IMG/VR virus record: IMGVR_UViG_3300046733_000629
Length of the DNA stretch: 64,000 nt
Direction: 5' to 3' (one strand)
Source of the DNA: a virus
Taxonomy: Duplodnaviria > Caudoviricetes
Part shown: positions 42,506 through 62,365 of the stretch, piece by piece
How positions within the stretch are numbered: position 1 is the stretch's first letter
Layout: each line of letters opens with the position of its first letter
Notes under the pieces: generated by a model
What the model was told of the DNA's origin: nothing
The model's database searches: none
What the model saw: only the letters and a program-made list of their open reading frames with translations
Made by a program: the position numbers and the translations under genes

Positions 42506-43670
42506 AAAACCAGCATGTTATGCACCTTGGATAACAACATATGAAAGTGCTTTAGGTAAGATTAACCCATGCTGTGATGCAAAGGGTTGGTTAATACCTA
42601 ACAAAGAGAAAAAAAGTCTTACATTTGAAGAACGATGGAATGACCCAGAAATGGTTAAGTTCAGAGAAACCTTAATGACTGGAGAACTTCCTGATAATTG
42701 TGGTAACTGTTTACATAATGAAAAGAATGGTGCTAGATCTTTAAGAGAAGAATATAATGACTTTGAAGAACATGTAGAATTAGATAAGTTTAAACTAGTA
42801 CATATGGATTATAGAGAAAGTAATATATGTAATATGAGTTGTAAAATGTGTGGACATGATTTAAGTAGTACACACGCATTGTCACAAGGTATGTATGGTA
42901 AGACTGGTATAATGAACAATCCAACAAATCCACAAATATATCTTGATAACTTAGAAAATTTAAGAAGTATTAATTTTGCAGGCGGTGAACCAGCATTAAT
43001 GGATTCATTTTATGATGTACTTAATGCTATTATTGATAGAGATTTACAAAAGAATATTGATGTAAGTCTTGTAACAAATGGTTCAGTTATTATGAAAAAT
43101 AATGATAATTGGATAGAAAAAATAACACAAGGTGGATTTAAGGCTGCAAACATTGCAGTGAGTGTTGATTGCATGGAAGATGCTCATAACTATTGGCGTC
43201 AGAAGAATACTTGGAAATCAGTACATAATACATTAGAATATATGATAAAATGTAGACAAGAAGGAATGTGTGATCCAGGTGTAAGATTATCTGTCAGAGC
43301 CGCAATAGGTTGGCCAAATGCTTATGCGGCTAAGGACGTGTTTGATACATATACTAACCAAGTAGATCATATTAGACATAATTTTGTTAACAACCCAAAC
43401 TGGTTATCAATTGATATGTTACCTATAAAACATATAAAAGCATTAATTGAACACTGGGCAGATTATCCTTTTATACAAAAAGCATTCAGTAAACTAAATG
43501 AACCATCTGTTGATCATACTAAAGAGATCGCAATGAAGAAGTGGAAAAGAAACAACGAACTGTTAGACAACTACAACAGAGATATGACCTTTGCTGATGC
43601 TTTTCCTGAATTTGCAGAATTCTATAATTCAATTATCGTTCCTAAAACAGGAAAATTACAAAGAGGTTGA
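42453..43670 (+). CDS. Radical SAM protein with N-terminal Twitch
   Basis: ACYAPW...PCC...CGNC; CNMSCKMC; FAGGEP. True start uncertain. Confidence 0.85.
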   Translation: MLRSVAQNLTRMQNNSNKKPACYAPWITTYESALGKINPCCDAKGWLIPNKEKKSLTFEERWNDPEMVKFRETLMTGELPDNCGNCLHNEKNGARSLREEYNDFEEHVELDKFKLVHMDYRESNICNMSCKMCGHDLSSTHALSQGMYGKTGIMNNPTNPQIYLDNLENLRSINFAGGEPALMDSFYDVLNAIIDRDLQKNIDVSLVTNGSVIMKNNDNWIEKITQGGFKAANIAVSVDCMEDAHNYWRQKNTWKSVHNTLEYMIKCRQEGMCDPGVRLSVRAAIGWPNAYAAKDVFDTYTNQVDHIRHNFVNNPNWLSIDMLPIKHIKALIEHWADYPFIQKAFSKLNEPSVDHTKEIAMKKWKRNNELLDNYNRDMTFADAFPEFAEFYNSIIVPKTGKLQRG

Positions 43671-44188: not shown

Positions 44189-44445
44189 TGCCTAGACCTA
44201 CACAACGATTTCTTAAACCAACATCATTCAAGCCTAAAGGTTCTGTGTTTGAAGGACTGATATGGAAACAACCTAATTCAAAAGGTACTGATACATATGA
44301 TGTAGAATGTACTGAAAAAGGATTTACATGTGATTGTCCAGGATTTACTTTTCGAGGCAAATGTAAACATAGTTTAGAAGTTTTAACAAGAGTAGAGACA
44401 GCATTGGATGATAAACATCCTCAGTACCGTTGGGAGTTAACATGA
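44188..44445 (+). CDS. SWIM zinc-finger protein
   Basis: TCDCPGFTFRGKCKH (CxC...CxH). Confidence 0.8.
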   Translation: MPRPTQRFLKPTSFKPKGSVFEGLIWKQPNSKGTDTYDVECTEKGFTCDCPGFTFRGKCKHSLEVLTRVETALDDKHPQYRWELT

Positions 44446-44981
44446 CAACACATGCAATGATTGATTTAGAAACACTTGGTACTGGTCCAGATTGTGTAGT
44501 ACTAACTATTGGTGGTGTTAAATTTAATCCAAATTCTATAAGTGAACATTGGGATCCATTGTATTATAAATTTAATGTAGACGAGCAGTTAGACAAAGGC
44601 AGAACTACATTAGAAAGTACTCTTGAATGGTGGGGTAAGCAAGAAGAAAGTGTACGTGAAGAAGCATTAGGTGATGACAATCGTACACCTGTATTAGAAG
44701 TATTACAAGCATTGAATAAATGGTGCGTTGGTGCTGATACAATATGGTGCCAAGGACCAGCATTTGATATATGTATACTAGAAAACTTATTAAAACAATA
44801 CAATCATCATACACCTTGGCCATTTTGGAAGATACGTGATAGTAGAACATTATTTGGTATCATGCCAAAAGATCCACGCAAAGCAATAAAATTTAATGCA
44901 CACAATGCACTCGAAGATTGTAAAGTACAGGCATTATGTGTTCAACAAACAATAAAAGATTTGGGTTTAACTATACGGTAA
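44442..44981 (+). CDS. DEDDh 3'-5' exonuclease (Rv2179c/RNase AS-like)
   Basis: MIDLETLG, WCQGPAFD, RDSRTL, HNALED. Confidence 0.88.
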   Translation: MTTHAMIDLETLGTGPDCVVLTIGGVKFNPNSISEHWDPLYYKFNVDEQLDKGRTTLESTLEWWGKQEESVREEALGDDNRTPVLEVLQALNKWCVGADTIWCQGPAFDICILENLLKQYNHHTPWPFWKIRDSRTLFGIMPKDPRKAIKFNAHNALEDCKVQALCVQQTIKDLGLTIR

Positions 44982-45112: not shown

Positions 45113-45862
45113 ATGAGTACTCGAGATATTGTGCAAGACATTGTCAAGCACACAGCCGGACTAGGCTTTATTACATCAGTAAAAGTCACAGGAACTAATG
45201 AAGAAACAACACTTGATGCAATGGATGCAGATCGTACAGTGATTCTACAAGCAAAATTACACAATGCAGTTGATGATTTCAATGGTGAGTTTGGTCTAGG
45301 TAACTTAGGTTTCTTAGCAGGCATTACTTCATTAGGAAATTATCAAACAGATGATTCTACAGTAGAAGTAGTAACACGTGAACGTAATGGAGTAACAGTT
45401 CCAGATCATTTGATGTTTAAAGATGTAGAAGGTAATACAGATCAGTATCGCTTTATGTCAAAAGAAATCATTGAACAAACATTACAAACTGTAAAGTTTA
45501 AAGGTGTTGAATGGGATGTAACATTTGAACCAACAAAAGCAAAAGTAAATGAGCTACAACAAGTAGCAGGTATTTACGGAGGCATCGAACCTAACTTTAC
45601 TGTCAAGACAGTAGATGGTAATTTAGTTATTACTGTAGGCGCACAAGATGGTAGCTTCACAGGTAAACGTACATTCGCACAAAATGTAAATGGTGAGATT
45701 ACAGAAGGCTATGCATGGCCACTTAACCAAGTACTAGCAATCCTAAAACTAGGAATGTCAGGTGCATGTGTAATGCAAATTAGTAAAAAAGGTGCATTGC
45801 TTATTTCAGTTGATTCAGGCATTGGCAAATACGATTATATTTTACCAGCACTAACAGTATAG
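45113..45862 (+). CDS. DNA sliding clamp (gp45/beta-clamp-like)
   Basis: 249 aa with alternating beta/alpha pattern, ending GKYDYILPA; follows an exonuclease. Assignment from recalled jumbo-phage homologues. Confidence 0.6.
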   Translation: MSTRDIVQDIVKHTAGLGFITSVKVTGTNEETTLDAMDADRTVILQAKLHNAVDDFNGEFGLGNLGFLAGITSLGNYQTDDSTVEVVTRERNGVTVPDHLMFKDVEGNTDQYRFMSKEIIEQTLQTVKFKGVEWDVTFEPTKAKVNELQQVAGIYGGIEPNFTVKTVDGNLVITVGAQDGSFTGKRTFAQNVNGEITEGYAWPLNQVLAILKLGMSGACVMQISKKGALLISVDSGIGKYDYILPALTV

Positions 45863-45872
45863 AGAATAGAAT

Positions 45873-47372
45873 ATGGCAGATAGAAAAGACTTAACAACTA
45901 GTAATAAAGACTACAGTGTATTCTTACCGAGTATCAGTAGCTTTTATTCTAAGTTTATAGCACAAGCACAAATGCGTCCAGACTTTGTTAAGCCTGAACG
46001 TATGCCTGCAGGCTTTGAATATGGTATTGATGGCTTTGACTTTTTAAAGCCTAAAGACAATTACTATAATTACAAATGGGGTCTTTACTCTGCCGGGCAT
46101 GCTACTCGAGATACTGCTAAGAGTGATGTACAGGAACCAATGATTCAAAAGCGAGACAGGGAGAATAGTTTTATCCTTGGCGACAGTGGTGGGTTCCAGA
46201 TTGCTACAGGTGTAATCAAATGTGATTGGCCTAACTTTAAAACAGATGATGATCTGCGTAAGACAATTCTTAACTGGTTGGAACATACAGCAGATTATAG
46301 TATGGTATTAGATATTCCTACATTGGCTGCGGCACCACCGCTTAATGCTAAGACAGGATTAACTAATTGGGTTGATTGTTTAGAATATACAATGTTCAAT
46401 AATGATTACTTTGTTCGTAACAGACAAGGTAAAACTAAGTTCTTAAATGTATTACAAGGTAACAACGAGCAACAAGCAGATGATTGGTATGGTGCAGTTA
46501 AGCATTATCCATTTGAAGGTTGGGCTATGGCTGGTTACAATATGAAGCAATTACATCTTGCATTACGTAGACTTATTGTAATGCGTGATGAGAAGATGCT
46601 TGACCCAGGTAGAGATCTAATACACTACTTAGGTACAAGTAAATTAAATTGGTCGTGTATCTTTACTGCAATACAACGTAACATTAGAGAAACTATTAAT
46701 CCTAATATGATGGTAACATATGATGCCGCTAGTCCGTTTATTACAACGGCTAAAGGTCAAGCATATACACAACATGTACATAGGAACAATAAGTTTAGTT
46801 ATGTTATGGAACAGGCAGTAGATGATAAACGTTTCCAACACAGTGACATTCCTTTCCCATTTAATAGTCCAATTGGTGAACGTATGAATATGGGAGACTT
46901 ATGTTACATGGGTCCAGGTATGTTAAACAAACTTGGAAAAGAAGGCAAGACTAGTTGGGATAGTTTCTCATACTTCTTGTTAATGGCACACAATGTTTAT
47001 CAACACATTGAAGCATGTCAACGTGCTAATACACTTGCTGACATTGCAACAACCAGGTACAAGCCAAGTCACTTAGAATGGAATAAAGTGAAACCTGGAC
47101 AAAGTGAATTTGATTTATGGGTTCCACGTGATGTAATTTATGTTACAGAATTTATAAATCAATTATTTAAAAGTGAAACACCTATGCAAATGCTAGAAGA
47201 AGGTGAAGCAATGCTAACACACTTCAGTGGTATGAAAACTATTAAAACAACACAAGGTGCTTTTGATAGTTTATTTGACTCAGGTGATAATGCTCAAGAA
47301 GAAAGCGATGGCGAATTTACAGCTGAACAGGCTGAAGCGGCAGAAGATTTCTTAGAGCACCTAGAACAGTAA
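45873..47372 (+). CDS. dpdA: TGT-fold base-exchange enzyme, DpdA-like
   Basis: ILGDSGGFQ, MVLDIP, LNVLQG, GWAMAG, HYLGTS and YDAASP align in order with the TGT catalytic motifs; sits among folE/queD genes. Confidence 0.75.
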   Translation: MADRKDLTTSNKDYSVFLPSISSFYSKFIAQAQMRPDFVKPERMPAGFEYGIDGFDFLKPKDNYYNYKWGLYSAGHATRDTAKSDVQEPMIQKRDRENSFILGDSGGFQIATGVIKCDWPNFKTDDDLRKTILNWLEHTADYSMVLDIPTLAAAPPLNAKTGLTNWVDCLEYTMFNNDYFVRNRQGKTKFLNVLQGNNEQQADDWYGAVKHYPFEGWAMAGYNMKQLHLALRRLIVMRDEKMLDPGRDLIHYLGTSKLNWSCIFTAIQRNIRETINPNMMVTYDAASPFITTAKGQAYTQHVHRNNKFSYVMEQAVDDKRFQHSDIPFPFNSPIGERMNMGDLCYMGPGMLNKLGKEGKTSWDSFSYFLLMAHNVYQHIEACQRANTLADIATTRYKPSHLEWNKVKPGQSEFDLWVPRDVIYVTEFINQLFKSETPMQMLEEGEAMLTHFSGMKTIKTTQGAFDSLFDSGDNAQEESDGEFTAEQAEAAEDFLEHLEQ

Positions 47373-47385
47373 ATGGAGGAACGTT

Positions 47386-47589
47386 ATGGGAACAGGTACA
47401 ATTAATAGTAAAAAAAGATATCTAAATAACTTAACAACCAAACATAGAATGCTTGACAAAGAAATAAATGTGTTATATAATAATCACAGTAGCGATGATA
47501 TTGTTAAAGCAAAGAAACAAGAAAAGTTACAATTGAAAGAAGCAATTGTTGCTATGGAAAATGAACTAAATCAAATAAGTAAACACTAA
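47386..47589 (+). CDS. DUF465/YdcH-like coiled-coil protein
   Basis: L..KHRMLDKEI...KQEKLQLKEAI. Confidence 0.7.
   Translation: MGTGTINSKKRYLNNLTTKHRMLDKEINVLYNNHSSDDIVKAKKQEKLQLKEAIVAMENELNQISKH
47453..47481 (+). promoter_or_regulatory. Internal sigma70 promoter
   Basis: TTGACA-17 nt-TATAAT inside the DUF465 gene. Confidence 0.65.
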
Positions 47590-47604
47590 CTAGGTAATAT
47601 AGTA

Positions 47605-48135
47605 ATGAAAAGAGATTATACATCAAGCAATGACGTAACTGGCGTAACGTTCTTTGTCGGAACAGAAATTGAACATACTCCTACTTTTGGTATGAAAACA
47701 CTATTTGTAGTTGGTATGCAAGATATAGATGAAGTTAAAGAAATGGCAGAACGTAATGAAGTTGATGCTATCTATTTAGGTGCTAATCAAAGTTTTGAGA
47801 TTACTGGAGAACATGGAACTGATGCTGAACAAGAAGGTTGGGATGCATTAGTTAAGGGTTTGGTTACAGACTATTATGTAACATTAGACTTTGATTTAGA
47901 AGATGTTGATTGGATCCAAGAAAGTGGATACACTGAATATAATAATTTTATCCCAATGGTATCTGTTAAGGTTCCATACATTGAACAGTTGGGATATAAT
48001 ACTTGTATTAAATTTGATGATATTGATTTTAATGCAACAAATAAAGGAGTATGGACACACCGTCTACATTCTTTAATGGACCCTAAGAAGTTCACAAATT
48101 GGAACCAATACAAACAAGACGAAATAATTGAATAG
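47605..48135 (+). CDS. Hypothetical protein inside the deazaguanine operon (176 aa)
   Basis: FFVGTEIEHTP...TLFVVG...IYLGANQSF...KFDDIDF...GVWTH. Confidence 0.7.
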   Translation: MKRDYTSSNDVTGVTFFVGTEIEHTPTFGMKTLFVVGMQDIDEVKEMAERNEVDAIYLGANQSFEITGEHGTDAEQEGWDALVKGLVTDYYVTLDFDLEDVDWIQESGYTEYNNFIPMVSVKVPYIEQLGYNTCIKFDDIDFNATNKGVWTHRLHSLMDPKKFTNWNQYKQDEIIE

Positions 48136-48146
48136 GAGAATATACA

Positions 48147-48341
48147 ATGCCAAAGAAAATTCGTTTAATGGATGATGCAACAGCAACAGCAACGGCTGAA
48201 GCACCAGCAACTACAACAGAAGCAGGTGCAGGCTCTGTTGATAAACAAACAGTTGATGCACTAATGAAGTATCTTGAAGCTATTGATTGGAAGCTATGGG
48301 AAATGCTTAAAATCATGAAAGCCGATCAAGAAAGTAAGTAA
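48147..48341 (+). CDS. Small hypothetical protein
   Basis: AGGAG SD; LEAIDWKLWEM. Confidence 0.65.
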   Translation: MPKKIRLMDDATATATAEAPATTTEAGAGSVDKQTVDALMKYLEAIDWKLWEMLKIMKADQESK

Positions 48342-48342
48342 C

Positions 48343-48735
48343 ATGATTAATGTAACACAACGGCAAATCTGGGTAACATTTAGTAAGGAAGGTGTACACT
48401 TGTATCCTGCCGCTATTGATGATCCAGCACTAGCCACAGGTAAGTGGGATGACGTGTCATTCTTAGGATATGCACACAGACATATCTTTCACTTTAAAGT
48501 AGCAATTGATGTGTTCCATGATGACAGAGATATTGAATTTATTCAATTCAAACGTTGGTTGGAATCACTATATGCTAACAGCACATTAGAACTAAATCAT
48601 CGTAGTTGTGAGATGATAGCAGAGGAATTAGCACAGGAAATACACAACAAGTATCCTAATCGTTCAATTACAATTTCAGTCGCAGAGGATAATGAGAACG
48701 GTGCGACAATGACATTTAACCCAACAGAAGGATAA
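48343..48735 (+). CDS. queD: QueD-like T-fold protein (6-carboxy-tetrahydropterin synthase-like)
   Basis: HRHIFH metal-binding motif, DRDIEF, SCEMIA; 130 aa; near folE. Confidence 0.7.
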   Translation: MINVTQRQIWVTFSKEGVHLYPAAIDDPALATGKWDDVSFLGYAHRHIFHFKVAIDVFHDDRDIEFIQFKRWLESLYANSTLELNHRSCEMIAEELAQEIHNKYPNRSITISVAEDNENGATMTFNPTEG

Positions 48736-48739
48736 CGTA

Positions 48740-49099
48740 ATGTCTACAATTAAAAACGACAATAGCGTTTCAGTAAATTATTTTAAACTGGCTGGCTATT
48801 ATAACATCAATGATATTAAGTATGACCTACTTAAAATTATTGCTCCATATGATGGATACATGTATAATGAGAAAGAAACAGACAAACTCATTAGTGTATT
48901 TAACTCTTACTTGGGAGACCTTAAAAAGAGTTATAAAATCTTTAGTTATGATATTCAGACTACTGAAAAAGAAAATGCATTTACTTTTGATATTCAAATC
49001 AAAATGCAAAAAGACCGTAGCCCTAAGAAGCTAAAAATCCACGTAGGTAAACTTTGGTACGAAGTTAACAAAGCCAAAGAAGCGAGTGAGAATGCGTAA
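48740..49099 (+). CDS. Hypothetical protein
   Basis: Operon-packed 119-aa ORF. Confidence 0.6.
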   Translation: MSTIKNDNSVSVNYFKLAGYYNINDIKYDLLKIIAPYDGYMYNEKETDKLISVFNSYLGDLKKSYKIFSYDIQTTEKENAFTFDIQIKMQKDRSPKKLKIHVGKLWYEVNKAKEASENA

Positions 49100-50309
49100 G
49101 CTATTCTACATGGGCTTAGAACCTTATGAAGGTCGTTACACACTACAGTTACAAGACTGGAGTGAAGCGGCTTTTAAAAAACGTGGCATCGAATATGTAG
49201 TTGTTCCAGGCACTACAATCGATAATACTAAATCAATTAGTGTAGGGCAAGTACTAGATGCACATGGTAGATCATACTTTGGTATGAGTCAACTTATGAA
49301 CTTAGTACAAATGATGCGTAATGGTGAATGTAGCGGAGAAGATGTAGTATTCTTTGAAGATATGTTCCAACCTGGTATTGAAAGTTTACCATACATTATG
49401 TGTCAAGTTCCAGAAGAACAACGACCAAAGATTTATTTACGTTGTTTAGCACAAGCAGTAGACCCAGATGACTTTGTTCATGTATGGGGTATGAGCAAGT
49501 GGATGTCTTTATACGAACAAATGTGTAATGAGATTCCTAATGTACATATTCTTGCAACTAATGAAGAAATGGTTGCACATATGCGTATTGCTAATTGGAA
49601 TGCACCAATCTACAACATATCTGGTTTGAGCTTTGGCAAAGAAGAAGTTCAAAGTCGTGTTGATAATAAAATTAAGCCATGGGAAGAACGTAGCAACAGA
49701 GTAGTATTTGCGGCACGTTTTGATCAAGAGAAGCAACCAGACTTCTTTATGGATGTTATCGAAATGGTACACGAAAGAACTAAATCTTTTGATAGAGATG
49801 ACTTAACAGATAAAATTTATCCTGTAGAGTTTGCAGTACTAAGTGGAGGACCTTTACGTAGTAATAATCAAAAGTATTTAGATAGAGCTTTACAAATGGA
49901 AGCAGAAGGTAAACTTACAATTCTAAAAGATTTACAGAAGAATGATTACTATAATGTAGTTAATGATTCTAAAGTAATGTTTAATTGTGCATTGCAAGAC
50001 TGGGTATCTAATACAGTAAGTGAAGCAGATGCATTAGGTTGTAACGTAGTTTATCCTGCATACAGAAGTTTTCCAGAAACGTTTGCAAACGATCATACTA
50101 GACTTTACATGCCATGGAGTAAAGAAGATGCAGTAAGTAAAATCTTAGCAGGACTTGAAGCACCTTCTAACAACATGGGTAAGATTAGTGATTGGACAAA
50201 CGGAACTATCGATCGTATGATTGATATTATGGAAGGCAGTTATAAACATAACCAATGGTTACGTAGTGGTAACAGATATCGTGATCACGTAGCTAAGGAG
50301 AAATATTAA
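49092..50309 (+). CDS. GT-B glycosyltransferase (GT4-like)
   Basis: VVFAARFDQEKQPDFF and SNTVSEADALGCNVVYP. Confidence 0.75.
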   Translation: MRKLFYMGLEPYEGRYTLQLQDWSEAAFKKRGIEYVVVPGTTIDNTKSISVGQVLDAHGRSYFGMSQLMNLVQMMRNGECSGEDVVFFEDMFQPGIESLPYIMCQVPEEQRPKIYLRCLAQAVDPDDFVHVWGMSKWMSLYEQMCNEIPNVHILATNEEMVAHMRIANWNAPIYNISGLSFGKEEVQSRVDNKIKPWEERSNRVVFAARFDQEKQPDFFMDVIEMVHERTKSFDRDDLTDKIYPVEFAVLSGGPLRSNNQKYLDRALQMEAEGKLTILKDLQKNDYYNVVNDSKVMFNCALQDWVSNTVSEADALGCNVVYPAYRSFPETFANDHTRLYMPWSKEDAVSKILAGLEAPSNNMGKISDWTNGTIDRMIDIMEGSYKHNQWLRSGNRYRDHVAKEKY

Positions 50310-50310
50310 T

Positions 50311-51273
50311 ATGAAAGTACTAGTAACAGGAGCAGGTGGATATATTGGTTCACAAACATGTAAGACATTATATAACAAAGGATATCATGTCGTAGGTGTT
50401 GATAGAAACAGGATTAAACATAGCTATTGTAAAACTGTTTATTCAGGAAATTACAGTGACTACGCCGTGCAAGCGTTACTACTTGATATTGATTGCGTAG
50501 TTCATATTGGAGCAACCAGTTTAGTTGGACCTAGTGTTTTAGACCCTAGTAAGTACTATAACAACAATGTTGCAAGTACACTTGAACTACTTGATGCATG
50601 TAAAAATCAAGGCGTTAATCGTTTTGTTTTTGCAAGCAGTGCGGCAACTTATGGTGAGCCAGAGGAAGATGTATGTAATGAAAAAGAAATACATGAACCT
50701 GTAAACCCATATGGTTGGAGCAAACGTATGACTGAGATTATGTTAAAAGATTATGCAACTGCATATGGAATTAACAGTGTCAGTTTACGTTTCTTTAACG
50801 TAGCTGGTGCAGACTTAGATGGTGAGTTTGGACAAGAAAAAGCGGCTACACATATTATTGCTAAACTTATGGAAATGACTATGGCTGGCAAAGACTTTAC
50901 ATTAAATGGAGATAGTTTTAATACACCAGACGGAACTTGTGTTAGAGATTATGTACATGTAGATGATGTAGCACGTGGTATAGCTATGGCAGTAGACTTC
51001 ACACAATTTAAAAATGATGCTTATGTATTTAACTTAGGCAACGGTGAAGGATACAGTAACATGGATATTGTAAAAGCAGTTGAAGATCATACACCATTAA
51101 AACCTGTTATTCATACAGGACCTGCTAGAGCAGGAGATCCTGCAAAGCTAGTAGCAGATAGTGAACTAGCAAATAAACTATTGCAATGGAAGCCAAACTA
51201 TGGACTTGACACAATAGTTAAGACAGCATACAATTATTATTTAAAAACAAATAAAACGACATCCTCGTCGTAA
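50311..51273 (+). CDS. galE: UDP-glucose 4-epimerase
   Basis: TGAGGYIG, SSAATYG, YGWSK (YxxxK), LRFFNVAGA, DGTCVRDYVHV. Confidence 0.9.
   Translation: MKVLVTGAGGYIGSQTCKTLYNKGYHVVGVDRNRIKHSYCKTVYSGNYSDYAVQALLLDIDCVVHIGATSLVGPSVLDPSKYYNNNVASTLELLDACKNQGVNRFVFASSAATYGEPEEDVCNEKEIHEPVNPYGWSKRMTEIMLKDYATAYGINSVSLRFFNVAGADLDGEFGQEKAATHIIAKLMEMTMAGKDFTLNGDSFNTPDGTCVRDYVHVDDVARGIAMAVDFTQFKNDAYVFNLGNGEGYSNMDIVKAVEDHTPLKPVIHTGPARAGDPAKLVADSELANKLLQWKPNYGLDTIVKTAYNYYLKTNKTTSSS
51206..51234 (+). promoter_or_regulatory. Internal sigma70 promoter upstream of folE
   Basis: TTGACA-17 nt-TACAAT. Confidence 0.55.
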
Positions 51274-51287
51274 ACTCGGAGAACAAA

Positions 51288-51977
51288 ATGAGTAAAAGTA
51301 AAGAAATTAAGGCCCGTTTGCAGGACGCAAACATTCGTCATTGGGCAGGCGACAACATTTCAGAAGTCTTACAACAAGGCGACAAAGAAGCACTAATTGA
51401 AGATGCCACAGTAGCATTTGAAAACGTTCTTGATACATTATTAATTGACAGACATAACGATCCTAATTCAATGGGTACAGCAAGGCGCCTAGCTAAAATG
51501 TACTACAATGAAATTATGGCAGGACGTTATGATCCTGCTCCTGGTGCAACAGCATTTCCTAATGACAGCGATGATCGATATGAAGGTATGCTAGTAGTAC
51601 GTAGTGAACTTAAAAGCATGTGTTCGCATCACCATCAGCCAGTAGCAGGTATTGCATACATTGGTATTATTGCCGCAGACAAACTAATTGGTTTAAGCAA
51701 GTACACACGTATTGCACAATGGTGTTCTAGACGTGGTACACTACAAGAAGAACTTGCTAACGACATTGTACGTGAAATTCAAAAAGCAACAGATGCAAAA
51801 CACTTAGGTGTATATATTCAAGCAACACATGGTTGTTGTGAGAACAGAGGTATTATGGCAACTAGCAGTCTTACACAGACAACTGTACTAAAAGGTGCAT
51901 TCAAAGATGATCCTGGTACAAAGAAAGAGTTTATGGATAACATTAAACTACAACAATCATATGCGAGTGGAAAATAA
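51288..51977 (+). CDS. folE: GTP cyclohydrolase I
   Basis: TARRLAKMY, SMCSHHHQP, IGLSKYTRIAQW..RRGTLQE, HGCCENRG. Confidence 0.95.
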   Translation: MSKSKEIKARLQDANIRHWAGDNISEVLQQGDKEALIEDATVAFENVLDTLLIDRHNDPNSMGTARRLAKMYYNEIMAGRYDPAPGATAFPNDSDDRYEGMLVVRSELKSMCSHHHQPVAGIAYIGIIAADKLIGLSKYTRIAQWCSRRGTLQEELANDIVREIQKATDAKHLGVYIQATHGCCENRGIMATSSLTQTTVLKGAFKDDPGTKKEFMDNIKLQQSYASGK

Positions 51978-51978
51978 A

Positions 51979-52482
51979 ATGGTGAACAAAGTATATTATA
52001 CATGGAAAGATATTGAACATATGGTTAACACTGTTAACAATCTTATGTTTGCAGACAATTGGCGTCCTGACTACATTGTAGGAATGACACGTGGTGGATT
52101 AGTACCAGCAGTCATTATGTCTAACATTACAGGAATTAAAATGCATGCGTTAGATGTGCGTTTCCGTGATGGAGACTCTCAAGAATCAAATTCTTGGATG
52201 GCTGAAGATGCACATTCAGGTAAAAACATTCTTGTGTTTGATGACATTAATGATAGTGGTAAAACTATGCAATGGGTTAAAGATGATTGGCCATCGGGTT
52301 GTTATCCAGGTAGTGCTTGGGATAATGTTTGGGGTAATAATGTTAGGTTTGCCTCATTACTTGACAACCAAGCAAGTGACTTTGGCGAAGTAGATTACAC
52401 AGCTATGGAAATTAATAAAATGGAAAAGGATGTATGGGTAGTATTTCCTTGGGAAGGTGAGCGAGATTATGGAAACTTCTGA
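51979..52482 (+). CDS. Type I phosphoribosyltransferase (Gpt/Hpt-like)
   Basis: IVGMTRGGLVPA, ILVFDDINDSGKT, WVVFPWE. Confidence 0.88.
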   Translation: MVNKVYYTWKDIEHMVNTVNNLMFADNWRPDYIVGMTRGGLVPAVIMSNITGIKMHALDVRFRDGDSQESNSWMAEDAHSGKNILVFDDINDSGKTMQWVKDDWPSGCYPGSAWDNVWGNNVRFASLLDNQASDFGEVDYTAMEINKMEKDVWVVFPWEGERDYGNF

Positions 52483-53419: not shown

Positions 53420-56110
53420 ATGAAGAAACTATTAGCAACATTTATTATTGCTATATCACTTTCAACAAGTGCATATGCTGGCAATTTTAAAAGCTATTAT
53501 GATTATGCAAGTAATCTAAATAGCGGGCTACAAATTAGCTTTTCTACGTCAATGATTAATAATTATACACGTAGTAACAAAATGTACAAAAACTTGATTG
53601 ACAAGTACGATCATATGTTTTCAAAGTACGGCTGGTTTCAAACTATGAAAGAACGTTATGCGTTCCAACTATCCGAGATCAATAAATTTCAACAATTAAT
53701 TAACGTTAAAGAAGCACAAGTAACTCTTGTAAACACAACTTATAAGGTTACAACTGGTGTTGTTGTAAGGCGTGGTGCAACTACTCTTACAAACGAATCT
53801 ACAAAAGTTGTTGAAGAAACATCTGGCAATATAGTTAAAGAGTTTGCAGTAGTTACTAAAGTTTATAGTACTCCTATTAGAAAAGATTATTGGGAAAATA
53901 CTAATACTATTACTCATTACAGTGATGGTACTACAGGTAGTTCTAATAGTAACAAAATTACAAAAACTACGAACGAAGTTGAAACTGATTCTAAAGTTGA
54001 AAGAGAACTTATCAGAGAATATGCTTTAGTCATACCAGAAGAAGATAACAAGGTAGTTGACAATGCAGACATTAAAATTCTAACTGAGGCAGAATACTTA
54101 GCTAGAAATGATGTTACTCTGTTTGAAACAGAAACATATAATGAAGCAGTTTGGAATATGAACAGTAGAATTAATGAATGGTATACTGTTAATATTTTAT
54201 CTAAAAATTATGCTAACCACTTAGAACAAATTGGTGCACCAGCCGCTTGGGCTAGAGGATACACAGGTAAAGGTAGTACAATTGCTATACTTGATACTGG
54301 TATAGACATGGACCATACTGAGTTTGAAGGCAAGATTAAAGGTGCAGAATGTTTTACAGGACTATGTAAAAATGGACATGAAACAATACATGACGCAAAT
54401 AGATTCTCACACGGAACACATGTTGCAAGTATTGCGGCAGGTAACTTAGACGGCAACGGTACAACAGGTGTTGCACCAGATGCAGACTTGTTAATTGCTA
54501 AGACAGCATGGAACTTTGGATCGTTTGATTTTAGTGTAGCAGATGAAGCAATTGCTTGGGCCGTAAACAACGGAGCAGATGTAATTAACATCAGTGCTAA
54601 CTATATGTTTGATAGAACATACATCAATAGTATAGAAGAGATTTCTCCGGGTATGTATAAGTCAACAGATACAAGAGGACGTAATGGTAAAACATATGAC
54701 AAGTTTGGATATGCGGCACTAGCAGACAGCGATCTTTATTACAAAGATATTGTTGAATCAATGAAAGGTCACGAAGCGGTACTAGTATTGTCAGCAGGTA
54801 ACCAAGGAACAGATGTTGCAGGTCAGCCTAGTTTTATTGCACTAGACGAAGAAGTTGGTGATAGGGTTTTGATTGTTGGTAACTATGATGCACGTCAAGG
54901 TGACATATATAGGCTTTCTAATAAAGCAGGTACTATGTGTTTTGAGGTTAATGTAGATGGTAGTTGTGCAACAAACAAACGAATCAGTGATAGCTTTATA
55001 CTTGCACCAGGTAGGTATGTAGCAGGTGCTGATGCAAATGGTGAGTATAGAACTAACAGTGGAACGTCACAGTCGGCTCCTATGGTATCAGGTGCAGTTG
55101 CAATTGTACATCAAATGTGGCCACATATGACAGGTGCTAACTTAACTAAACTATTGTTAAATACTGCTAATAAGGATCTTCCTAACTATGATGAGAATGT
55201 ACATGGTCAAGGATTGTTAGACTTAGATGCGGCAACACTTCCACAAGGTGCTATTGGTCTTCCTACTACAGGTAGAGCAGAAGGTGGTACTATAAATATT
55301 GGAAGCAGTGGTACTATTGCAATGTCAGGTAATGCTACAATTTCAGCATTGTCACAAACAATGGTAATTGATGATTACGATAGGGATTATTACTTTGATG
55401 CTAACACTATGGTACAAATTAATGACACAAGAACTGCAAGTGCTACATCGTCAGCATTGTATGGATTTACTCCAGACTACTATATTGGGTACAATGGTGG
55501 TACTATTATCCCAATGACAAATGGTGGTACACATATTGCACTTAATGAAGATAACAATAATGTAAGTATTGTACAAAAGTATGAAGGGTTTACATTGGGT
55601 CTTGTTAATGAACAAGGTAGCTTCTTAGGTAACATTGCTGATAGTGAACTTATGAAAGTTACCGGAGCAGAAACTGCATACTTAGGTTACAGTTTTGATA
55701 ACGGTAATGTGTTTGGTAGTGCAACACTAGGAGCAACTAAACTAGATGTAGACAGTAGTTCAATGCTTAAGAGTGCAGACATTATGATGTCTAACAGTGC
55801 AACACTAGGTATTAAGCAAACTGTAGACAGTAGCACATTTGGATTTGTAGCAAGTGTACCAGTTAGTATTACTAGCGGTGATGCACACTTTGATGTTCCA
55901 TCAAGTATAAGTAGTGATGGAAATATTAACAATTCAGAAATGAGTAGTTCGATGAAAGCTGATAAAAGAGAAGTTGACTTTGGAATGTTTTATAACTTCA
56001 ATCCAACAGATACAACTGCATTTACGGCTAACGTAGAACTTAGAACTAATTACGCAGGTACAAGCGAAGATACAGTAAGTGCAGGCGTTACATATAGGAT
56101 AATGTTTTAA
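53420..56110 (+). CDS. Exported S8 subtilisin-like protease with a beta-rich C-terminus (autotransporter-like)
   Basis: Signal peptide; ILDTG, HGTHVAS, SAGN, GTSQSAP; terminal Phe. Confidence 0.85.
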   Translation: MKKLLATFIIAISLSTSAYAGNFKSYYDYASNLNSGLQISFSTSMINNYTRSNKMYKNLIDKYDHMFSKYGWFQTMKERYAFQLSEINKFQQLINVKEAQVTLVNTTYKVTTGVVVRRGATTLTNESTKVVEETSGNIVKEFAVVTKVYSTPIRKDYWENTNTITHYSDGTTGSSNSNKITKTTNEVETDSKVERELIREYALVIPEEDNKVVDNADIKILTEAEYLARNDVTLFETETYNEAVWNMNSRINEWYTVNILSKNYANHLEQIGAPAAWARGYTGKGSTIAILDTGIDMDHTEFEGKIKGAECFTGLCKNGHETIHDANRFSHGTHVASIAAGNLDGNGTTGVAPDADLLIAKTAWNFGSFDFSVADEAIAWAVNNGADVINISANYMFDRTYINSIEEISPGMYKSTDTRGRNGKTYDKFGYAALADSDLYYKDIVESMKGHEAVLVLSAGNQGTDVAGQPSFIALDEEVGDRVLIVGNYDARQGDIYRLSNKAGTMCFEVNVDGSCATNKRISDSFILAPGRYVAGADANGEYRTNSGTSQSAPMVSGAVAIVHQMWPHMTGANLTKLLLNTANKDLPNYDENVHGQGLLDLDAATLPQGAIGLPTTGRAEGGTINIGSSGTIAMSGNATISALSQTMVIDDYDRDYYFDANTMVQINDTRTASATSSALYGFTPDYYIGYNGGTIIPMTNGGTHIALNEDNNNVSIVQKYEGFTLGLVNEQGSFLGNIADSELMKVTGAETAYLGYSFDNGNVFGSATLGATKLDVDSSSMLKSADIMMSNSATLGIKQTVDSSTFGFVASVPVSITSGDAHFDVPSSISSDGNINNSEMSSSMKADKREVDFGMFYNFNPTDTTAFTANVELRTNYAGTSEDTVSAGVTYRIMF

Positions 56111-58811: not shown

Positions 58812-60194
58812 ATGACAAAAGCAATAGTCGTGCTTGCAGACTCAAAACAAGCAAAGAAACTTGGTGCACCAGTTAAACGTGCATCAGCAAACTTAGAAAA
58901 AAGTGTAGACATATCGTTTGCACATGAAGAATATGATTACATTACTGTAATTGAAACTAAACCTAAAACAGCAAACGATGCTCGTGAACTAGGTGGAGAT
59001 ATGTTTAGCAAGTATAAAAAAATAGCTACTACATTAGAACTTGATGATGCATTAGGTTTTAGTAATGACATTCTCGAAGGAATTGACTTAGCAGGATACA
59101 CATTTAATAAGTACAAAACAGATTCAAAAGATATTAAATTAGATTCTGTAACTATTAATAGCAAAAGCATTGATGAAGTTAAACAAAGTATTTCAGGTAG
59201 TATCAATTTTGCACGTGACTTAGTATCAGAACCAGGTAACGTATTATATCCACAAACATATGCGGCACGTATTCAACGTAACTTATCACCAACTGGTATA
59301 ACAGTAAAACTATATCATGAATCACAACTAAAAGAAATGGGACTTAACTTATTATTAAGTGTAGGACAAGGTAGTGAGAAAGATAGTTATGTAGTTGTTA
59401 TGGAACACATGAACGGCAAAGAAGGCGAACAGCCAATTGCATTAGTAGGTAAAGGTGTTACATTTGATACAGGTGGTATTAGTTTGAAACCAGGACGCAA
59501 CATGGGCGATATGAAATACGACATGGGCGGTAGTGCCGCAGTAGTAGGTGCTATGCATGCAATTGGTACACAAAAGATTAAACGTAACGTAGTAGGTATT
59601 GTAGGCTTAGTAGAGAACATGCCAGACGGTAAAGCAATTAAGCCAGGTGATGTAGTTACTTCACTTAGTGGACAGACTGTAGAAAATTTAAATACAGATG
59701 CAGAAGGTAGACTTGTACTTGCAGATATATTAACATATGTACAAAAAGAATATAACCCATATGTGATAGTTGATCTAGCAACACTAACAGGTGCAATTGT
59801 AGCGGCTCTTGGTCATGAAATGGCAGGACTATTTACTAACTCAAGTGATTTAGAATTTGCAATTGATGATGCAGGTAAAGTATCTGGAGAAGGATTCTAT
59901 CGTATGCCAATGGGTTCTAACTATGCAAAAATGATTAAATCTCCAATTGCAGATATGCAAAACATTGGCGGACCATATGCAGGATCAACAACAGCCGCAG
60001 AGTTTTTATACAAATTTGTAGATAACAAAACAGCATGGGCTCACTTAGATATTGCAGGTATGGCTTGGGAAGAAAAAGGTAAACCAGTTACTCCTAAAGG
60101 TGCGGCAGGATTTGGTGTACGTACATTATTTAATCTTGTTAACAGTGTACCTAATAAACAATCGCTTGAAATTGATAAGGATATGGATTACTAA
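58812..60194 (+). CDS. pepA: Leucyl aminopeptidase (M17)
   Basis: VGKGVTFDTGG, MKYDMGG, NTDAEGRLVLAD, WAHLDIAG. Confidence 0.93.
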   Translation: MTKAIVVLADSKQAKKLGAPVKRASANLEKSVDISFAHEEYDYITVIETKPKTANDARELGGDMFSKYKKIATTLELDDALGFSNDILEGIDLAGYTFNKYKTDSKDIKLDSVTINSKSIDEVKQSISGSINFARDLVSEPGNVLYPQTYAARIQRNLSPTGITVKLYHESQLKEMGLNLLLSVGQGSEKDSYVVVMEHMNGKEGEQPIALVGKGVTFDTGGISLKPGRNMGDMKYDMGGSAAVVGAMHAIGTQKIKRNVVGIVGLVENMPDGKAIKPGDVVTSLSGQTVENLNTDAEGRLVLADILTYVQKEYNPYVIVDLATLTGAIVAALGHEMAGLFTNSSDLEFAIDDAGKVSGEGFYRMPMGSNYAKMIKSPIADMQNIGGPYAGSTTAAEFLYKFVDNKTAWAHLDIAGMAWEEKGKPVTPKGAAGFGVRTLFNLVNSVPNKQSLEIDKDMDY

Positions 60195-60955
60195 TGGCAA
60201 ACACAATAGCAGTATTTGGTTGTGGCTTCGTTGGTGGAACTGTAGCAAATTACTTAGAAGAACATGGAACTAAGGTTATAAGAGTAGATCCAAAACTATA
60301 TCCATTTCAAGATCCATATGATGCAGTTTTTGATTCAGATGGTATAGTAATTGCAGTACCAACTCCAAGTAAAGATGATGGTACATGTGATGATAGTATG
60401 ATTACAAAAGTATTATCTTACTGTGATGCTCGTTCAAAGGTATTGATTAAAAGCACAGTAACACCAGACTTGCTACAGAATTATGATGTAAATGTAGTAT
60501 ACAACCCTGAGTTCTTAAGAGAAGCACATGCAAAAGAAGACTTTGAAAATCAACATACATTTGTATTAGGACATCATAAGCATAATGAACCAGATGCAAA
60601 ATGGTGGGCAGAAGTATTTCAAATTGATGCATCAAAGTGTATATTTACAAATAGACGTACTGCAAGCATGATCAAATACACACATAATTCGTGGTTAGCA
60701 ACAAAAGTTGCATGGTTTCATGAGCTATATGATAATCTACCACCAGAAGTTGACTATGACGCTATTACTAGTGCCTTGGGTAGATTTCCTACAGTAGGAT
60801 CGACACATATGCAAGCGCCAAACTCAGAGGGCGGCCTAGGATATAGTGGTGCTTGTTTTCCTAAAGATGTAAAAGCCTTGACAAATGTCGTAAATCATAG
60901 TATACTTAGTAAAGTTAAAGAAACAAATAATAAACTAAACTCTAAAGGAGAATAA
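60194..60955 (+). CDS. ugd: UDP-glucose/GDP-mannose dehydrogenase family protein lacking the C-terminal domain
   Basis: GCGFVG, AVPTP, KSTV, NPEFLRE, GYSGACFPKD. Confidence 0.8.
   Translation: MANTIAVFGCGFVGGTVANYLEEHGTKVIRVDPKLYPFQDPYDAVFDSDGIVIAVPTPSKDDGTCDDSMITKVLSYCDARSKVLIKSTVTPDLLQNYDVNVVYNPEFLREAHAKEDFENQHTFVLGHHKHNEPDAKWWAEVFQIDASKCIFTNRRTASMIKYTHNSWLATKVAWFHELYDNLPPEVDYDAITSALGRFPTVGSTHMQAPNSEGGLGYSGACFPKDVKALTNVVNHSILSKVKETNNKLNSKGE
60878..60906 (+). promoter_or_regulatory. Internal sigma70 promoter
   Basis: TTGACA-17 nt-TATACT. Confidence 0.65.
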
Positions 60956-61468: not shown

Positions 61469-62365
61469 TTGGATAAGCTAAGGTATAGTGAAGCTTTCTA
61501 TTCGGTACAAGGTGAAGGTAAATTTGTAGGAGTGCCTAGTGTATTCCTACGTACATTTGGTTGTAACTTTCGTTGCATGAACTTTGGAGTAGATACAAAG
61601 AAAGATCGTTGGGAACAACATGCAGAAGGTAACAGGTATAATGCAGAAGTAAAAGGTTTGCTTGATGCAGGTGTACATAAACAAGAAATTGAATTTGAAC
61701 AGTTACCTATTGTACATACAGGTTGTGATACTTATGCAAGTATCTATCCTGAATTTAAACATTTTAATAAACAAGCTACAATTGATGAAGTTGTAGAACA
61801 TCTTCTATCGTTAACACCTAATGGTAAGTGGGTACAAGACAATGGGCAAGATGTACATCTTATTTTAACAGGCGGCGAACCATTGCTTGCTTGGCAAAGA
61901 TTATATATTGATCTTTTTAACCACCCACGTATGAAGGATTTAAAAAATGTTACATTTGAAACAAACACTACACAAAAATTACATGCAGATTTTGCAGAGT
62001 ATCTCAACAATCAAGACAGAATCAAAGTCACTTGGAGTTGTTCCCCAAAACTTAGTGTTAGCGGAGAACGTTGGGAAGATGCTATTAAACCTAGTGTGGC
62101 TAATGAATATATTAGTGTTAACGATAGTGACATGTATCTTAAGTTTGTTGTCGCTAGTGAAGATGATTTTAACGAAGTCAAAAAAGCTGTTAGTGCTTAT
62201 CAGAGTTCCGGGGTACAATGTCCAGTATATCTTATGCCGCTTGGCGGACGTAGTGAAGAATACTCCCTTAACGTTAAAGACGTGGCTGAAGCGTGTATGG
62301 CAGAAGGTTGGAGGTTCACACCAAGACTCCACATCAGTCTCTTCGGAAACGCCTGGGGAACATAA
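61469..62365 (+). CDS. queE: 7-carboxy-7-deazaguanine synthase (radical SAM)
   Basis: FYSVQGEG, FLRTFGCNFRC...GCDT, LTGGEP, FETN, SPKL, RLHISLFGN. Confidence 0.92.
   Translation: MDKLRYSEAFYSVQGEGKFVGVPSVFLRTFGCNFRCMNFGVDTKKDRWEQHAEGNRYNAEVKGLLDAGVHKQEIEFEQLPIVHTGCDTYASIYPEFKHFNKQATIDEVVEHLLSLTPNGKWVQDNGQDVHLILTGGEPLLAWQRLYIDLFNHPRMKDLKNVTFETNTTQKLHADFAEYLNNQDRIKVTWSCSPKLSVSGERWEDAIKPSVANEYISVNDSDMYLKFVVASEDDFNEVKKAVSAYQSSGVQCPVYLMPLGGRSEEYSLNVKDVAEACMAEGWRFTPRLHISLFGNAWGT

Follow-up and report, generated by a model that had tools for sequence, protein, structure and literature searches.

A conserved glycosyltransferase in a phage 7-deazaguanine operon may add a sugar to the modified base

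We propose that the window (the 64,000-nt stretch of phage DNA that we analyzed) contains a 7-deazaguanine operon, and that an integral glycosyltransferase most likely decorates its deazaguanine product with a sugar. This is our best explanation of the data, and we give it a probability of roughly 0.45. The evidence supports the core as a known gene set, a DpdA-type DNA-modification operon that swaps guanine in phage DNA for 7-deazaguanine. What is new is the glycosyltransferase, which is locked, with a UDP-sugar epimerase, into the gene set of many unrelated phages. A glycosyltransferase and an epimerase within a deazaguanine gene set predict a sugar-bearing purine in DNA, and this could be tested in phages that are already cultured. 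Our literature search found no paper on this glycosyltransferase or on a sugar-bearing deazaguanine in DNA, and no published nucleoside analysis for the phages PA5oct, ACP17, Phosso, BUCT-ZZ01, or Xanthomonas X1. The window derives from an abundant uncultured marine jumbo phage.

Genes of the deazaguanine pathway

The co-oriented run of genes in the original prediction is real: every listed open reading frame is present on the + strand (as are all genes described below), with spacings of 1-15 nt or slight overlaps. Profiles or folds upheld the assignments of FolE, GalE, a GT-B glycosyltransferase, a purine phosphoribosyltransferase (PRT), a divergent QueE, and a TGT-fold DpdA-like enzyme.

The gene that was first read as QueD-like is a different enzyme. 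This 130-aa protein (48343..48735) contains L41-x3-H45-R-H47-x-F49, which is the LxxxHRHxF signature of DpdL (PMC10516641). By BLASTP, it is 33% identical to CGPG_00067 from phage phiST (E = 3e-15) and 53% identical to DpdL from ACP17. The signature and these similarities identify it as DpdL, not QueD. (Atlas clusters that are related to this protein carry PF01242.) Cui et al. (2023) proposed that DpdL, a T-fold protein derived from QueD, is a decarboxylase of 7-carboxy-7-deazaguanine (CDG) that yields 7-deazaguanine, or dDG (PMC10516641). Because this gene is dpdL, the core is a known kind of system and not a pathway that ends at CDG. The presence of DpdL points to the decarboxylated base, dDG, which has already been described, so the original proposal that the base is CDG is not supported. 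The other part of that reading, a DpdA-type deazaguanine operon with the glycosyltransferase as a conserved member, stands.

The model of the 499-aa protein (45873..47372) confirms it as a DpdA-like DNA-guanine transglycosylase, of a large (~500 aa) clade with the TGT fold. It has no Pfam match, but its AF2 model (mc9f39ed4345e, pLDDT 84) is similar to the tRNA-guanine transglycosylases of Z. mobilis and human (Foldseek probability 1.00, E = 5e-8). GDSGGFQ and Asp284 are both invariant, with the aspartate in the context YDAASP instead of the FDC of TGT. This protein is 38% identical to gp168 of PA5oct, and its homolog in Vibrio phage 2.275.O adjoins QueC, QueF, and FolE. With hhalign, it matched ACP17 DpdA (E = 6e-5) but not DpdA3 of phiST.

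FolE (GTP cyclohydrolase I, the first step from GTP; 51288..51977) matches PF01227 (E = 1e-37) and phrog_2197. Next to it is a xanthine/guanine-type PRT (51979..52482; PF00156), whose best NCBIfam match is the xanthine-PRT model NF006613, below cut-off. Judging from the sequence, its true start is probably the ATG at 51979 and not the GTG at 51895. The divergent radical SAM enzyme QueE (7-carboxy-7-deazaguanine synthase; 61469..62365) is below cut-off as well, but its five best NCBIfam matches are all QueE models. It is 40% identical to the annotated QueE of BUCT-ZZ01 and 30% identical to that of PA5oct. As originally noted, the window lacks queC and queF: BLAST against phage QueC and QueF found no homolog in it. 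An HMM that we built from 25 phage QueDs found no canonical QueD in the window.

Two genes may supply nucleotide sugars. GalE (50311..51273) is a UDP-glucose (or UDP-GlcNAc) 4-epimerase (TIGR01179, 295.6 bits versus a cut-off of 262.3). A Ugd-like nucleotide-sugar dehydrogenase (60194..60955; PF03721 and PF00984) is a short form of 253 aa without the C-terminal domain; it aligns to positions 72-295 of the 413 in TIGR03026, and the same 250-aa short form is kept in relatives.

The run begins with a 249-aa protein (45113..45862), which precedes the DpdA-like gene and, in related phages, comes after DNA polymerase. Homologs hold the same position in PA5oct (annotated as a virion protein), Phosso (annotated as a clamp), and Vibrio phage 2.275.O. 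It had been called a sliding clamp, but we found only a PHROG of unknown function (phrog_12062), with no match in a PDB profile search and no hhalign match to the T4-type clamp. We consider it a clamp-like candidate.

We propose that FolE would open GTP, that CPH4 would be made by a QueD encoded by the host or by the phage genome outside the window, and that QueE would then make CDG. DpdL would remove or alter the carboxyl group of CDG, and the large DpdA-like enzyme would swap the product for guanine in DNA. The freed guanine would most simply be sent back to the GMP/GTP pool by the PRT, which would both supply FolE and draw the base exchange forward. GalE may provide a 4-epimerized UDP-sugar to the glycosyltransferase, which most likely would put a hexose or N-acetylhexosamine on the deazaguanine product, within DNA or shortly before insertion. 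The outcome would be a sugar-bearing purine. Of these steps, we put forward the acceptor of the glycosyltransferase the most cautiously.

The glycosyltransferase is linked to dpdL

The original prediction would have been undermined if the linkage between the glycosyltransferase and dpdA were not conserved, but it is conserved. Among 80 IMG/VR loci with this glycosyltransferase, a DpdA-like protein is present in 73, DpdL in 74, FolE in 69, and the PRT in 60, and GalE follows the glycosyltransferase in 76. QueC and QueF were found in none of the 80. (In the ACP17-type clade of the glycosyltransferase, 16 of the 24 loci have DpdL, and another 4 are truncated by a contig edge.) The acidic 176-aa protein u176 (47605..48135) is a frequent member of the module (67/80 loci). 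It has no Pfam or PDB match, is 31% identical to gp122 of ACP17, and belongs to a family with 835 representatives at 50% clustering. Between the genes for DpdL and the glycosyltransferase lies that of a 119-aa basic protein (48740..49099; no family match), which is present in 37/80 loci. The 67-aa DUF465 protein (47386..47589; PF04325, E = 9e-7) and a 64-aa protein with no family match (48147..48341) occur in close relatives only and are each present in 13/80 loci.

The reverse comparison gave a similar picture. Of 57 well-flanked metagenomic DpdL loci, about three quarters (43) contain the glycosyltransferase, at a median gap of 461 bp. Large DpdA is found in 38 of these 43 loci and DpdA3 in none, while the 14 loci without the glycosyltransferase include just 1 with large DpdA and 3 with DpdA3. 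The glycosyltransferase also adjoins dpdL in five cultured phage lineages with different hosts (PA5oct, ACP17, Phosso, BUCT-ZZ01, and Xanthomonas X1). The linkage to the dpd genes is far beyond chance, which supports the view that the glycosyltransferase was not inserted by accident but belongs to the operon as a conserved member (in the marine clade, together with GalE).

What might the glycosyltransferase act on?

The glycosyltransferase (49092..50309) is a GT4-type retaining GT-B enzyme: it scores slightly over the gathering threshold for PF00534 (26.7 bits), and its AF2 model (m7194829200c2, pLDDT 81.5) is similar to retaining GT4 enzymes (Z about 25). It is acidic (pI 5.3), has a conserved N-terminal motif (LEPxExRYT), and is 70% identical to its homolog in BUCT-ZZ01. 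Other homologs are gp124 of ACP17, gp167 of PA5oct, the Phosso glycosyltransferase, and a protein in Xanthomonas X1. Bacterial QTMAN-like clusters were among its neighbors in a language-model feature search (score 0.97), which we treat as a lead only. The QTMAN N-domain family (PF12038) was not detected in it, and there was no QTMAN entry among its 30 best Swiss-Prot structure matches.

Its top structural neighbors act on small molecules: BshA, MshA, sucrose-phosphate synthase, and the pterin glucosyltransferase BGluT (Z = 22.5, tied with other top matches). An alternative is that the DNA has plain 7-deazaguanine only, as in phiST, and that the enzyme modifies a small molecule of the pathway. 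This could be a pterin by-product or intermediate (as for the cyanobacterial pteridine glucosyltransferases), or free guanine or deazaguanine could be capped so that the exchange is driven to its end or the base escapes host salvage. FolE, a PTPS-like T-fold protein, and a GT4 enzyme together have the gene logic of pterin glycosides; the PRT already hints at management of the free-base pool; and dDG has no handle to which a sugar could attach. However, no solved pteridine glycosyltransferase resembles this glycosyltransferase in sequence. The latter goes with DpdL and large DpdA and not with FolE in general, and it was never seen in QueC/QueF clusters, although those use FolE too. The cluster of BUCT-ZZ01 has a second, GT1-like gene, which better suits a glycan on a stable acceptor than a metabolic sink. 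We consider this alternative unlikely.

The chemistry bears on our preferred reading as well. With neither a hydroxyl nor a carboxyl at C7, dDG has no obvious site for a sugar. The glycosylated DNA base is therefore a hypothesis, a little more tentative than the overall explanation, and its chemistry is less straightforward than originally supposed. We know of no retaining GT4 enzyme that N- or C-glycosylates a base. We also counted the acidity of the glycosyltransferase and its lack of a PF12038 match against our preferred reading. PA5oct DNA is resistant to restriction enzymes whose sites contain G (PMC12191111), which we counted in favor of our explanation.

It is quite unlikely that the glycosyltransferase and GalE have no more in common with the dpd genes than an early or replication operon and act on another target, such as hydroxymethylated DNA pyrimidines, a phage or host protein, or a host surface polysaccharide. 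GT4 and GalE genes that serve to glycosylate surfaces or proteins are common in phages. A NodU/CmcH-type carbamoyltransferase is encoded in the window as well, and this class reportedly serves in one cytosine hypermodification (PMC8670742). And a scan for sigma-70-like promoters gave no more than chance would, which leaves the operon structure putative. But no pyrimidine hydroxymethylase was found among the window's scanned open reading frames. The glycosyltransferase stays next to dpdL in marine uncultured lineages and in phages that infect Pseudomonas, Acidovorax, Sinorhizobium, Xanthomonas, and Synechococcus, while every other neighbor varies. Also, two clades of the glycosyltransferase that are only ~21% identical overall share motifs along the whole length of the N-domain, which is the acceptor side.

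TubE/ToyH-type enzymes join a base to PRPP in the biosynthesis of tubercidin and toyocamycin. Similarly, the PRT, which adjoins FolE in 60/80 loci and is present in BUCT-ZZ01 and PA5oct, might join CDG or DG to PRPP, with decarboxylation of the base or nucleotide by DpdL, reduction, and polymerization, and the TGT-fold protein would have a secondary or different role. This would fit the reported complete replacement of G in dDG phages, but it is very unlikely: nearly every locus keeps a TGT-fold protein whose catalytic Asp motifs are intact, the PRT scores only as a generic xanthine/guanine type and is absent from the phiST region that we compared, and Cui et al. report that all deazaguanine phages have a DpdA and argue that the base is inserted after replication (PMC10516641). 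ACP17 DpdL and DpdA gave no dDG in E. coli, and the same authors suggested that further enzymes are needed (PMC10516641). That failure would fit modification before replication; we also counted it in favor of our preferred explanation.

Comparison with known systems

Plain dDG was measured in the DNA of Cellulophaga phage phiST (Cui, Hutinet et al., NAR 2023, PMC10516641). The phiST DpdL/DpdA3 system shares FolE, QueE, DpdL with LxxxHRHxF, and a TGT-fold transglycosylase with the window; both lack QueC and QueF, and both lie beside replication genes. Unlike in phiST, the transglycosylase in the window is ~500 aa, with no detectable similarity to DpdA3, and there is no MazG. The glycosyltransferase, GalE, PRT, and u176 are additions that are absent from the phiST region. 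As phiST has DpdL and plain dDG without this glycosyltransferase, the sugar is not needed for the core chemistry.

The closest clusters are in PA5oct (gp162-gp170), ACP17 (gp119-gp126), Phosso, BUCT-ZZ01, and Xanthomonas X1, which have homologous glycosyltransferase, DpdL, DpdA-like, and QueE genes. Those of PA5oct and BUCT-ZZ01 also include the PRT, and those of PA5oct and Phosso begin with the clamp-like gene adjoining DNA polymerase. The records of these phages list DpdL and the glycosyltransferase as hypothetical proteins; the Phosso record alone names a glycosyltransferase. Full-length GalE is confined to the marine clade, and the large DpdA of ACP17, BUCT-ZZ01, and X1 is of another type than the window's.

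The alpha- and beta-glucosyltransferases of T-even phages, which act on 5-hydroxymethylcytosine, are likewise phage-encoded GT-B enzymes, and given GalE, the enzyme in the window probably also uses a UDP-sugar. The proposed roles are alike: decoration of a non-canonical base after replication, against host nucleases. But the T-even enzymes have no sequence relation to this one, no DNA glucosyltransferase is among its 50 best structural matches, and 5-hydroxymethylcytosine has a hydroxyl group whereas dDG does not.

In vertebrate tRNA, the GT4-type enzyme QTMAN/GTDC1 glycosylates queuosine, so a derivative of 7-deazaguanine receives its sugar within a nucleic acid. There, the sugar is attached to the cyclopentenediol group of queuosine, in RNA, and the enzyme has the PF12038 domain that we did not detect here. 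Finally, the cyanobacterial pteridine glycosyltransferase BGluT (PDB 5ZE7, Synechococcus PCC 7942) has the GT4 fold, with an alignment over 305 residues, and its pathway also includes FolE and a PTPS-type T-fold enzyme. It has no sequence match to our enzyme, and its structural score is no better than those of unrelated GT4 enzymes. Unlike the BGluT pathway, the module in the window also has QueE and a DNA transglycosylase.

The gene run and its deazaguanine genes

As originally predicted, the genes at 45113-52482 form one co-oriented run: the ORFs on the + strand are unbroken and are 1-15 nt apart or overlap slightly. The window is about 34% G+C. Its close relatives are on contigs of about 330 kb, so it comes from an uncultured marine jumbo phage.

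Profile searches agree with the original prediction for GalE (50311-51273, +), which scores 295.6 bits against TIGR01179 and so exceeds the equivalog cut-off of 262.3; for FolE (51288-51977, +), which matches PF01227 (E = 1e-37); and for the phosphoribosyltransferase (PRT; 51979-52482, +), which is of the purine type, with xanthine phosphoribosyltransferase as its best family. The PRT most likely starts at the ATG at 51979, two bases past the folE stop, rather than at an upstream GTG. The glycosyltransferase (GT; 49092-50309, +) matches the group-1 family PF00534 at 26.7 bits, against a gathering cut-off of 26.4. A perfect TTGACA-17-TATAAT lies at 47453-47481, within a DUF465 gene, and an 11/12 promoter match lies at 51206-51234, at the 3' end of galE and just ahead of folE; promoter-like sites are no more frequent in this region than in shuffled sequence.

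QueE and a nucleotide-sugar dehydrogenase-like gene were indeed found further on, with QueE divergent and the dehydrogenase-like gene short. QueE models take the top five places among the NCBIfam matches of the putative QueE (61469-62365, +), with E-values from 3e-14 to 8e-8 but far under their cut-offs, and the protein is 40% identical to the annotated QueE of Synechococcus phage BUCT-ZZ01. Its homology to annotated QueE proteins of phages supports this assignment. Another radical SAM gene, at 57803-58480, was rejected as QueE, as it matches only generic radical SAM maturases. The dehydrogenase-like gene (60194-60955, +) was identified by profile search. It resembles UDP-glucose dehydrogenase, and like its counterpart in a related locus (L003:20133-20885) it encodes a short form of 250-253 amino acids, without the C-terminal domain and with an incomplete N-domain. 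Since relatives keep the short form, the shortening is not recent. The deazaguanine gene set is in two parts, between which lie a large subtilase (896 amino acids; 53420-56110), a thymidine kinase (56110-56694), and an M17 leucyl aminopeptidase (58812-60194).

No QueC or QueF homologue was detected in the window, as had been claimed, and an HMM of 25 phage QueDs found no canonical QueD there. Some relatives do have a canonical QueD after the thymidine kinase gene (the QueD-like genes of loci L011, L013, and L018); the window's gene at that place differs from these and was rejected as QueD.

The gene at 45113-45862 had been called a sliding clamp, which we could not confirm: it has no Pfam or NCBIfam match, a profile search of PDB returned nothing relevant, and hhalign gave a probability of 0.1% against the T4-type clamp. 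The acidic protein u176 (176 amino acids; 47605-48135, +) has no PDB or Pfam match and does not match CGPG_00066 of phage phiST or the other small neighbours. Its GT-A-like Atlas scores are below 0.9 and are just a lead. Longer members of the u176 family were ruled out as DpdL fusions.

DpdL and the DpdA-like transglycosylase

FolE, QueD, and QueE make 7-carboxy-7-deazaguanine (CDG), and DpdA enzymes swap deazaguanines for guanine in DNA (PMC10516641). DpdL is a QueD-derived protein that is proposed to decarboxylate CDG to 7-deazaguanine, and its signature LxxxHRHxF replaces the CxxxHGH of QueD (Cui et al., PMC10516641). Phage phiST uses this pathway to replace all of its dG with the 7-deazaguanine nucleoside dDG (PMC10516641).

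The 130-amino-acid protein at 48343-48735 (+), originally predicted to be QueD-like, is instead DpdL. It has the exact signature (L41-GYA-H45-R46-H47-I-F49), and six homologues all conserve His45, His47, and Phe49. It is also homologous to the founder of the family, CGPG_00067 of phiST (33% identity, E = 3e-15), and to DpdL of Acidovorax phage ACP17 (53% identity, E = 3e-46), with further hits by tblastn. The window has the gene context of DpdL, with FolE, QueE, and DpdA but no QueC. A search of PDB with the family profile found no match; hints of the T-fold expected of DpdL come from Atlas, which leads to clusters with PF01242, and from hhalign, which matches weakly at the C-terminal SCE motif. 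In Vibrio phage Bakedbeans, DpdL is the C-terminal part of a 383-amino-acid protein (gp176, L171:7212-8363) with an N-terminal domain of about 260 amino acids. As the 130-amino-acid protein is DpdL, the core of the module is the DpdL-type pathway, which was already described.

The 499-amino-acid protein at 45873-47372 (+) has no sequence match in Pfam, NCBIfam, or PDB, and searching PDB with its family profile also found nothing; only the fold search worked. In that search, tRNA-guanine transglycosylases (TGT) from bacteria and humans match its AF2 model (pLDDT 84; Foldseek probability 1.00, E = 5e-8), which shows the (beta/alpha)8 fold of TGT, with a target-normalised TM of 0.55 to the Z. mobilis enzyme. 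Across 21 sequences (55-92% identity), D104 (in GDSGGFQI) and the D284-A-A-S-P motif do not vary; their correspondence to the catalytic aspartates of TGT was assigned by motif, not from superposition. The fold and these motifs bear out the original call of a DpdA-like enzyme.

A distant relationship links this protein to the ACP17 DpdA (hhalign E = 6e-5). It shows no detectable relation to DpdA3, the subfamily associated with complete replacement of G: hhalign of its family profile against CGPG_00065 of phiST gave a probability of 0.4%. We read it as a predicted DNA-guanine transglycosylase from a separate, large clade of DpdA. In Vibrio phage 2.275.O, a homologue (L007:8917-10707) adjoins QueF, a YhhQ-type transporter, QueC, and FolE, with neither DpdL nor GT, so this clade is not tied to a single deazaguanine product.

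The glycosyltransferase is linked to DpdL and the large DpdA

Our main result is that GT is linked to the DpdL/DpdA module. Homologues of GT adjoin dpdL in five cultured lineages with very different hosts: BUCT-ZZ01 (70% identity), ACP17 (gp124), PA5oct (gp167), Phosso, and Xanthomonas phage X1. These fall into two clades that are only about 21% identical, yet they align end-to-end and share motifs in the N-domain such as LEPxExRYT.

We then asked which genes lie within 10 kb of GT in 80 loci from IMG/VR with the window's type of GT. These have GalE (76/80), DpdL (74/80), the DpdA-like protein (73/80), FolE (69/80), u176 (67/80), PRT (60/80), and QueE (41/80), so the proposed co-occurrence of GT, galE, dpdA, and folE holds up. 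(No phylogenetic correction was applied to these counts, and loci were sampled in order of their similarity to the queries.) The gene order is nearly constant: clamp-like, dpdA, u176, dpdL, GT, galE, folE, PRT. QueC and QueF were found in none of the 80 and are absent from all 240 related loci. A locus extends 8-10 kb per side, so a gene that is missing may sit elsewhere; in Phosso, DpdA is about 170 kb from dpdL. Among the ACP17-type clade of GT, DpdL is adjacent in 16 of 24 loci, and four more loci stop at GT.

We also ran the reverse test. Of the 80 DpdL loci in IMG/VR that are most similar to that of phiST, 57 are flanked by 3 kb or more on each side, and 43 of these (75%) contain GT, at a median distance of 461 bp. 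The large DpdA is present in 38 of the 43 loci with GT and in 1 of the 14 without it, while DpdA3 is present in 0/43 and 3/14, respectively (Fisher p = 4e-8, ignoring shared ancestry). No GT was found in the regions fetched around DpdL of phiST, Aeromonas phage Ahp1, Rhizobium phage RHph_I1_18, or Bakedbeans. In other words, GT almost never occurs without DpdL, but DpdL at times occurs without GT, which is the pattern that an add-on step downstream of DpdL would produce.

We also looked at 34 loci in which DpdA shares less than 60% identity with that of the window; median identity there is 73% for GT, 62% for DpdL, 45% for DpdA, and 42% for GalE. Because these loci were chosen by GT similarity, the values no more than hint at strong constraint. 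Database searches with GT, DpdL, and the DpdA-like protein each gave at least 8000 candidates: whatever its nature, this modification is common in marine viromes.

Fold and family of the glycosyltransferase

The AF2 model of GT (pLDDT 81.5) is that of a GT4-type retaining GT-B enzyme and, along with the PF00534 match, confirms the predicted GT-B glycosyltransferase. The model matches sucrose-phosphate synthase, BshA, MshA, and TarM (Z = 24-25). VIA-align superposes it on the first three at an rmsd of 3.6-4.2 Å across 326-344 residues, with both Rossmann domains of a GT-B enzyme and a C-domain of the GT4 type. Candidates for the donor-side residues of GT4 enzymes (two basic residues and the Glu of EX7E) are R209, K214, and E311, which are invariant across both GT clades. 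From these matches, the fold suggests an active GT4 enzyme and says nothing firm about the acceptor.

More specific readings of GT were rejected. It has no PDB sequence match to the T4-type DNA glucosyltransferases (GT63, GT72), which are also absent from its 50 best Foldseek or VIA-align rows, so we rejected an N-terminus like that of T4 alpha-GT. An Atlas lead to QTMAN, a queuosine mannosyltransferase, was not supported either: the QTMAN N-terminal domain (PF12038) was undetected even at E up to 10, and there is no QTMAN entry among the 30 best Swiss-Prot structure matches.

BUCT-ZZ01 encodes a second, unrelated GT1-like glycosyltransferase (447 amino acids, L002:3011-4354) between folE and dpdA, with a homologue in locus L100. 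A Rv2179c-like 3'-5' exoribonuclease is just upstream of the module in the window (44430-44981), and its homologue in BUCT-ZZ01 (L002:7169-7693, 28% identity) is directly downstream of GT.

Other possible modification genes

Radical SAM proteins are unusually numerous in the window: besides QueE, it encodes six (11686-13329, 16366-17283, 36087-37235 on the - strand, 41408-42505, 42453-43670, and 57803-58480), two of which exceed the cut-off of the "twitch domain" subfamily. It also encodes a SufE-like Fe-S helper (62717-63109) and SAM synthetase (MetK, 63106-63999). As a set, these resemble a kit by which the phage supports radical SAM chemistry. The gene at 23914-25413 encodes a carbamoyltransferase of the NodU/CmcH type, which matches both Pfam domains (E = 1e-39 to 1e-49). 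Since such enzymes carbamoylate sugars or hydroxymethyl groups, further modification of nucleic acids or glycans is possible. In X1, a PAPS-reductase-type PP-loop protein (L173:3843-4376) lies within the cluster of folE, GT, dpdA, dpdL, and queE; this protein could be an enzyme like QueC, with an amidating or activating role.

Where the sugar may go

We propose that DpdL acts on CDG and that the large DpdA would insert the product into DNA. PRT could return the released guanine to GMP, which would feed FolE and pull the base exchange forward, and GalE would provide a 4-epimerised UDP-sugar to GT. At a little short of even odds, the acceptor of GT is the deazaguanine product, either in DNA or just before insertion. 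Three observations favour this acceptor: the linkage of GT is specific to DpdL with the large DpdA; BUCT-ZZ01 has a second glycosyltransferase; and dDG was not obtained when DpdL and DpdA of ACP17 were expressed in E. coli (Cui et al., PMC10516641).

The chief difficulty with this reading is one of chemistry: at C7, dDG bears no substituent that could be glycosylated. Either the sugar is at another atom, or DpdL does not perform a plain decarboxylation here, or the acceptor is something other than a DNA base. If the DNA base is glycosylated, GT would need a functional group, and the product of DpdL in these phages may be something other than plain C7-H. Overall, we give a probability of roughly 40% that phages with DpdL, the large DpdA, and the GT4 enzyme (this very abundant marine lineage, PA5oct, ACP17, BUCT-ZZ01, Phosso, and X1) have a glycosylated 7-deazaguanine in their DNA.

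A less likely alternative is that GT acts on a small molecule, for example a pterin or a free base. The model of GT does match the pterin glucosyltransferase BGluT (Z = 22.5), but this is tied within the GT4 group, and GT has no sequence match to the solved pteridine glycosyltransferases, so we rejected a pterin-glycoside enzyme as the best reading. That GT has an unrelated target is improbable given its specific linkage. As for the route into DNA, a PRT-based, tubercidin-like pre-replicative pathway is improbable.

Comparison to known systems

The deazaguanine core, of the DpdL type, is already known, and GT is what differs: it does not occur in Cui et al. 2023 (PMC10516641). According to a preprint, PA5oct resists restriction enzymes whose sites contain G and has genes resembling those for QueE and PTPS (PMC12191111). 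The absence of GT or u176 could account for the failed reconstitution of dDG in E. coli. The sugar hypothesis is directly testable, as the module is present in at least five cultured phages, and DNA from jumbo phages relevant to therapy, PA5oct among them, would have to be re-examined for its properties. Deazaguanine DNA is a major shield of phages against restriction enzymes and is targeted by newly found defence glycosylases and nucleases. Our full-text literature searches found no description of this GT or of a sugar-bearing deazaguanine in DNA. To our knowledge, a glycosylated 7-deazaguanine would be the first sugar-bearing purine in any DNA, and if most DpdL-type systems add a sugar, then the natural DNA bases would gain a new chemical class, the glycosylated purine.
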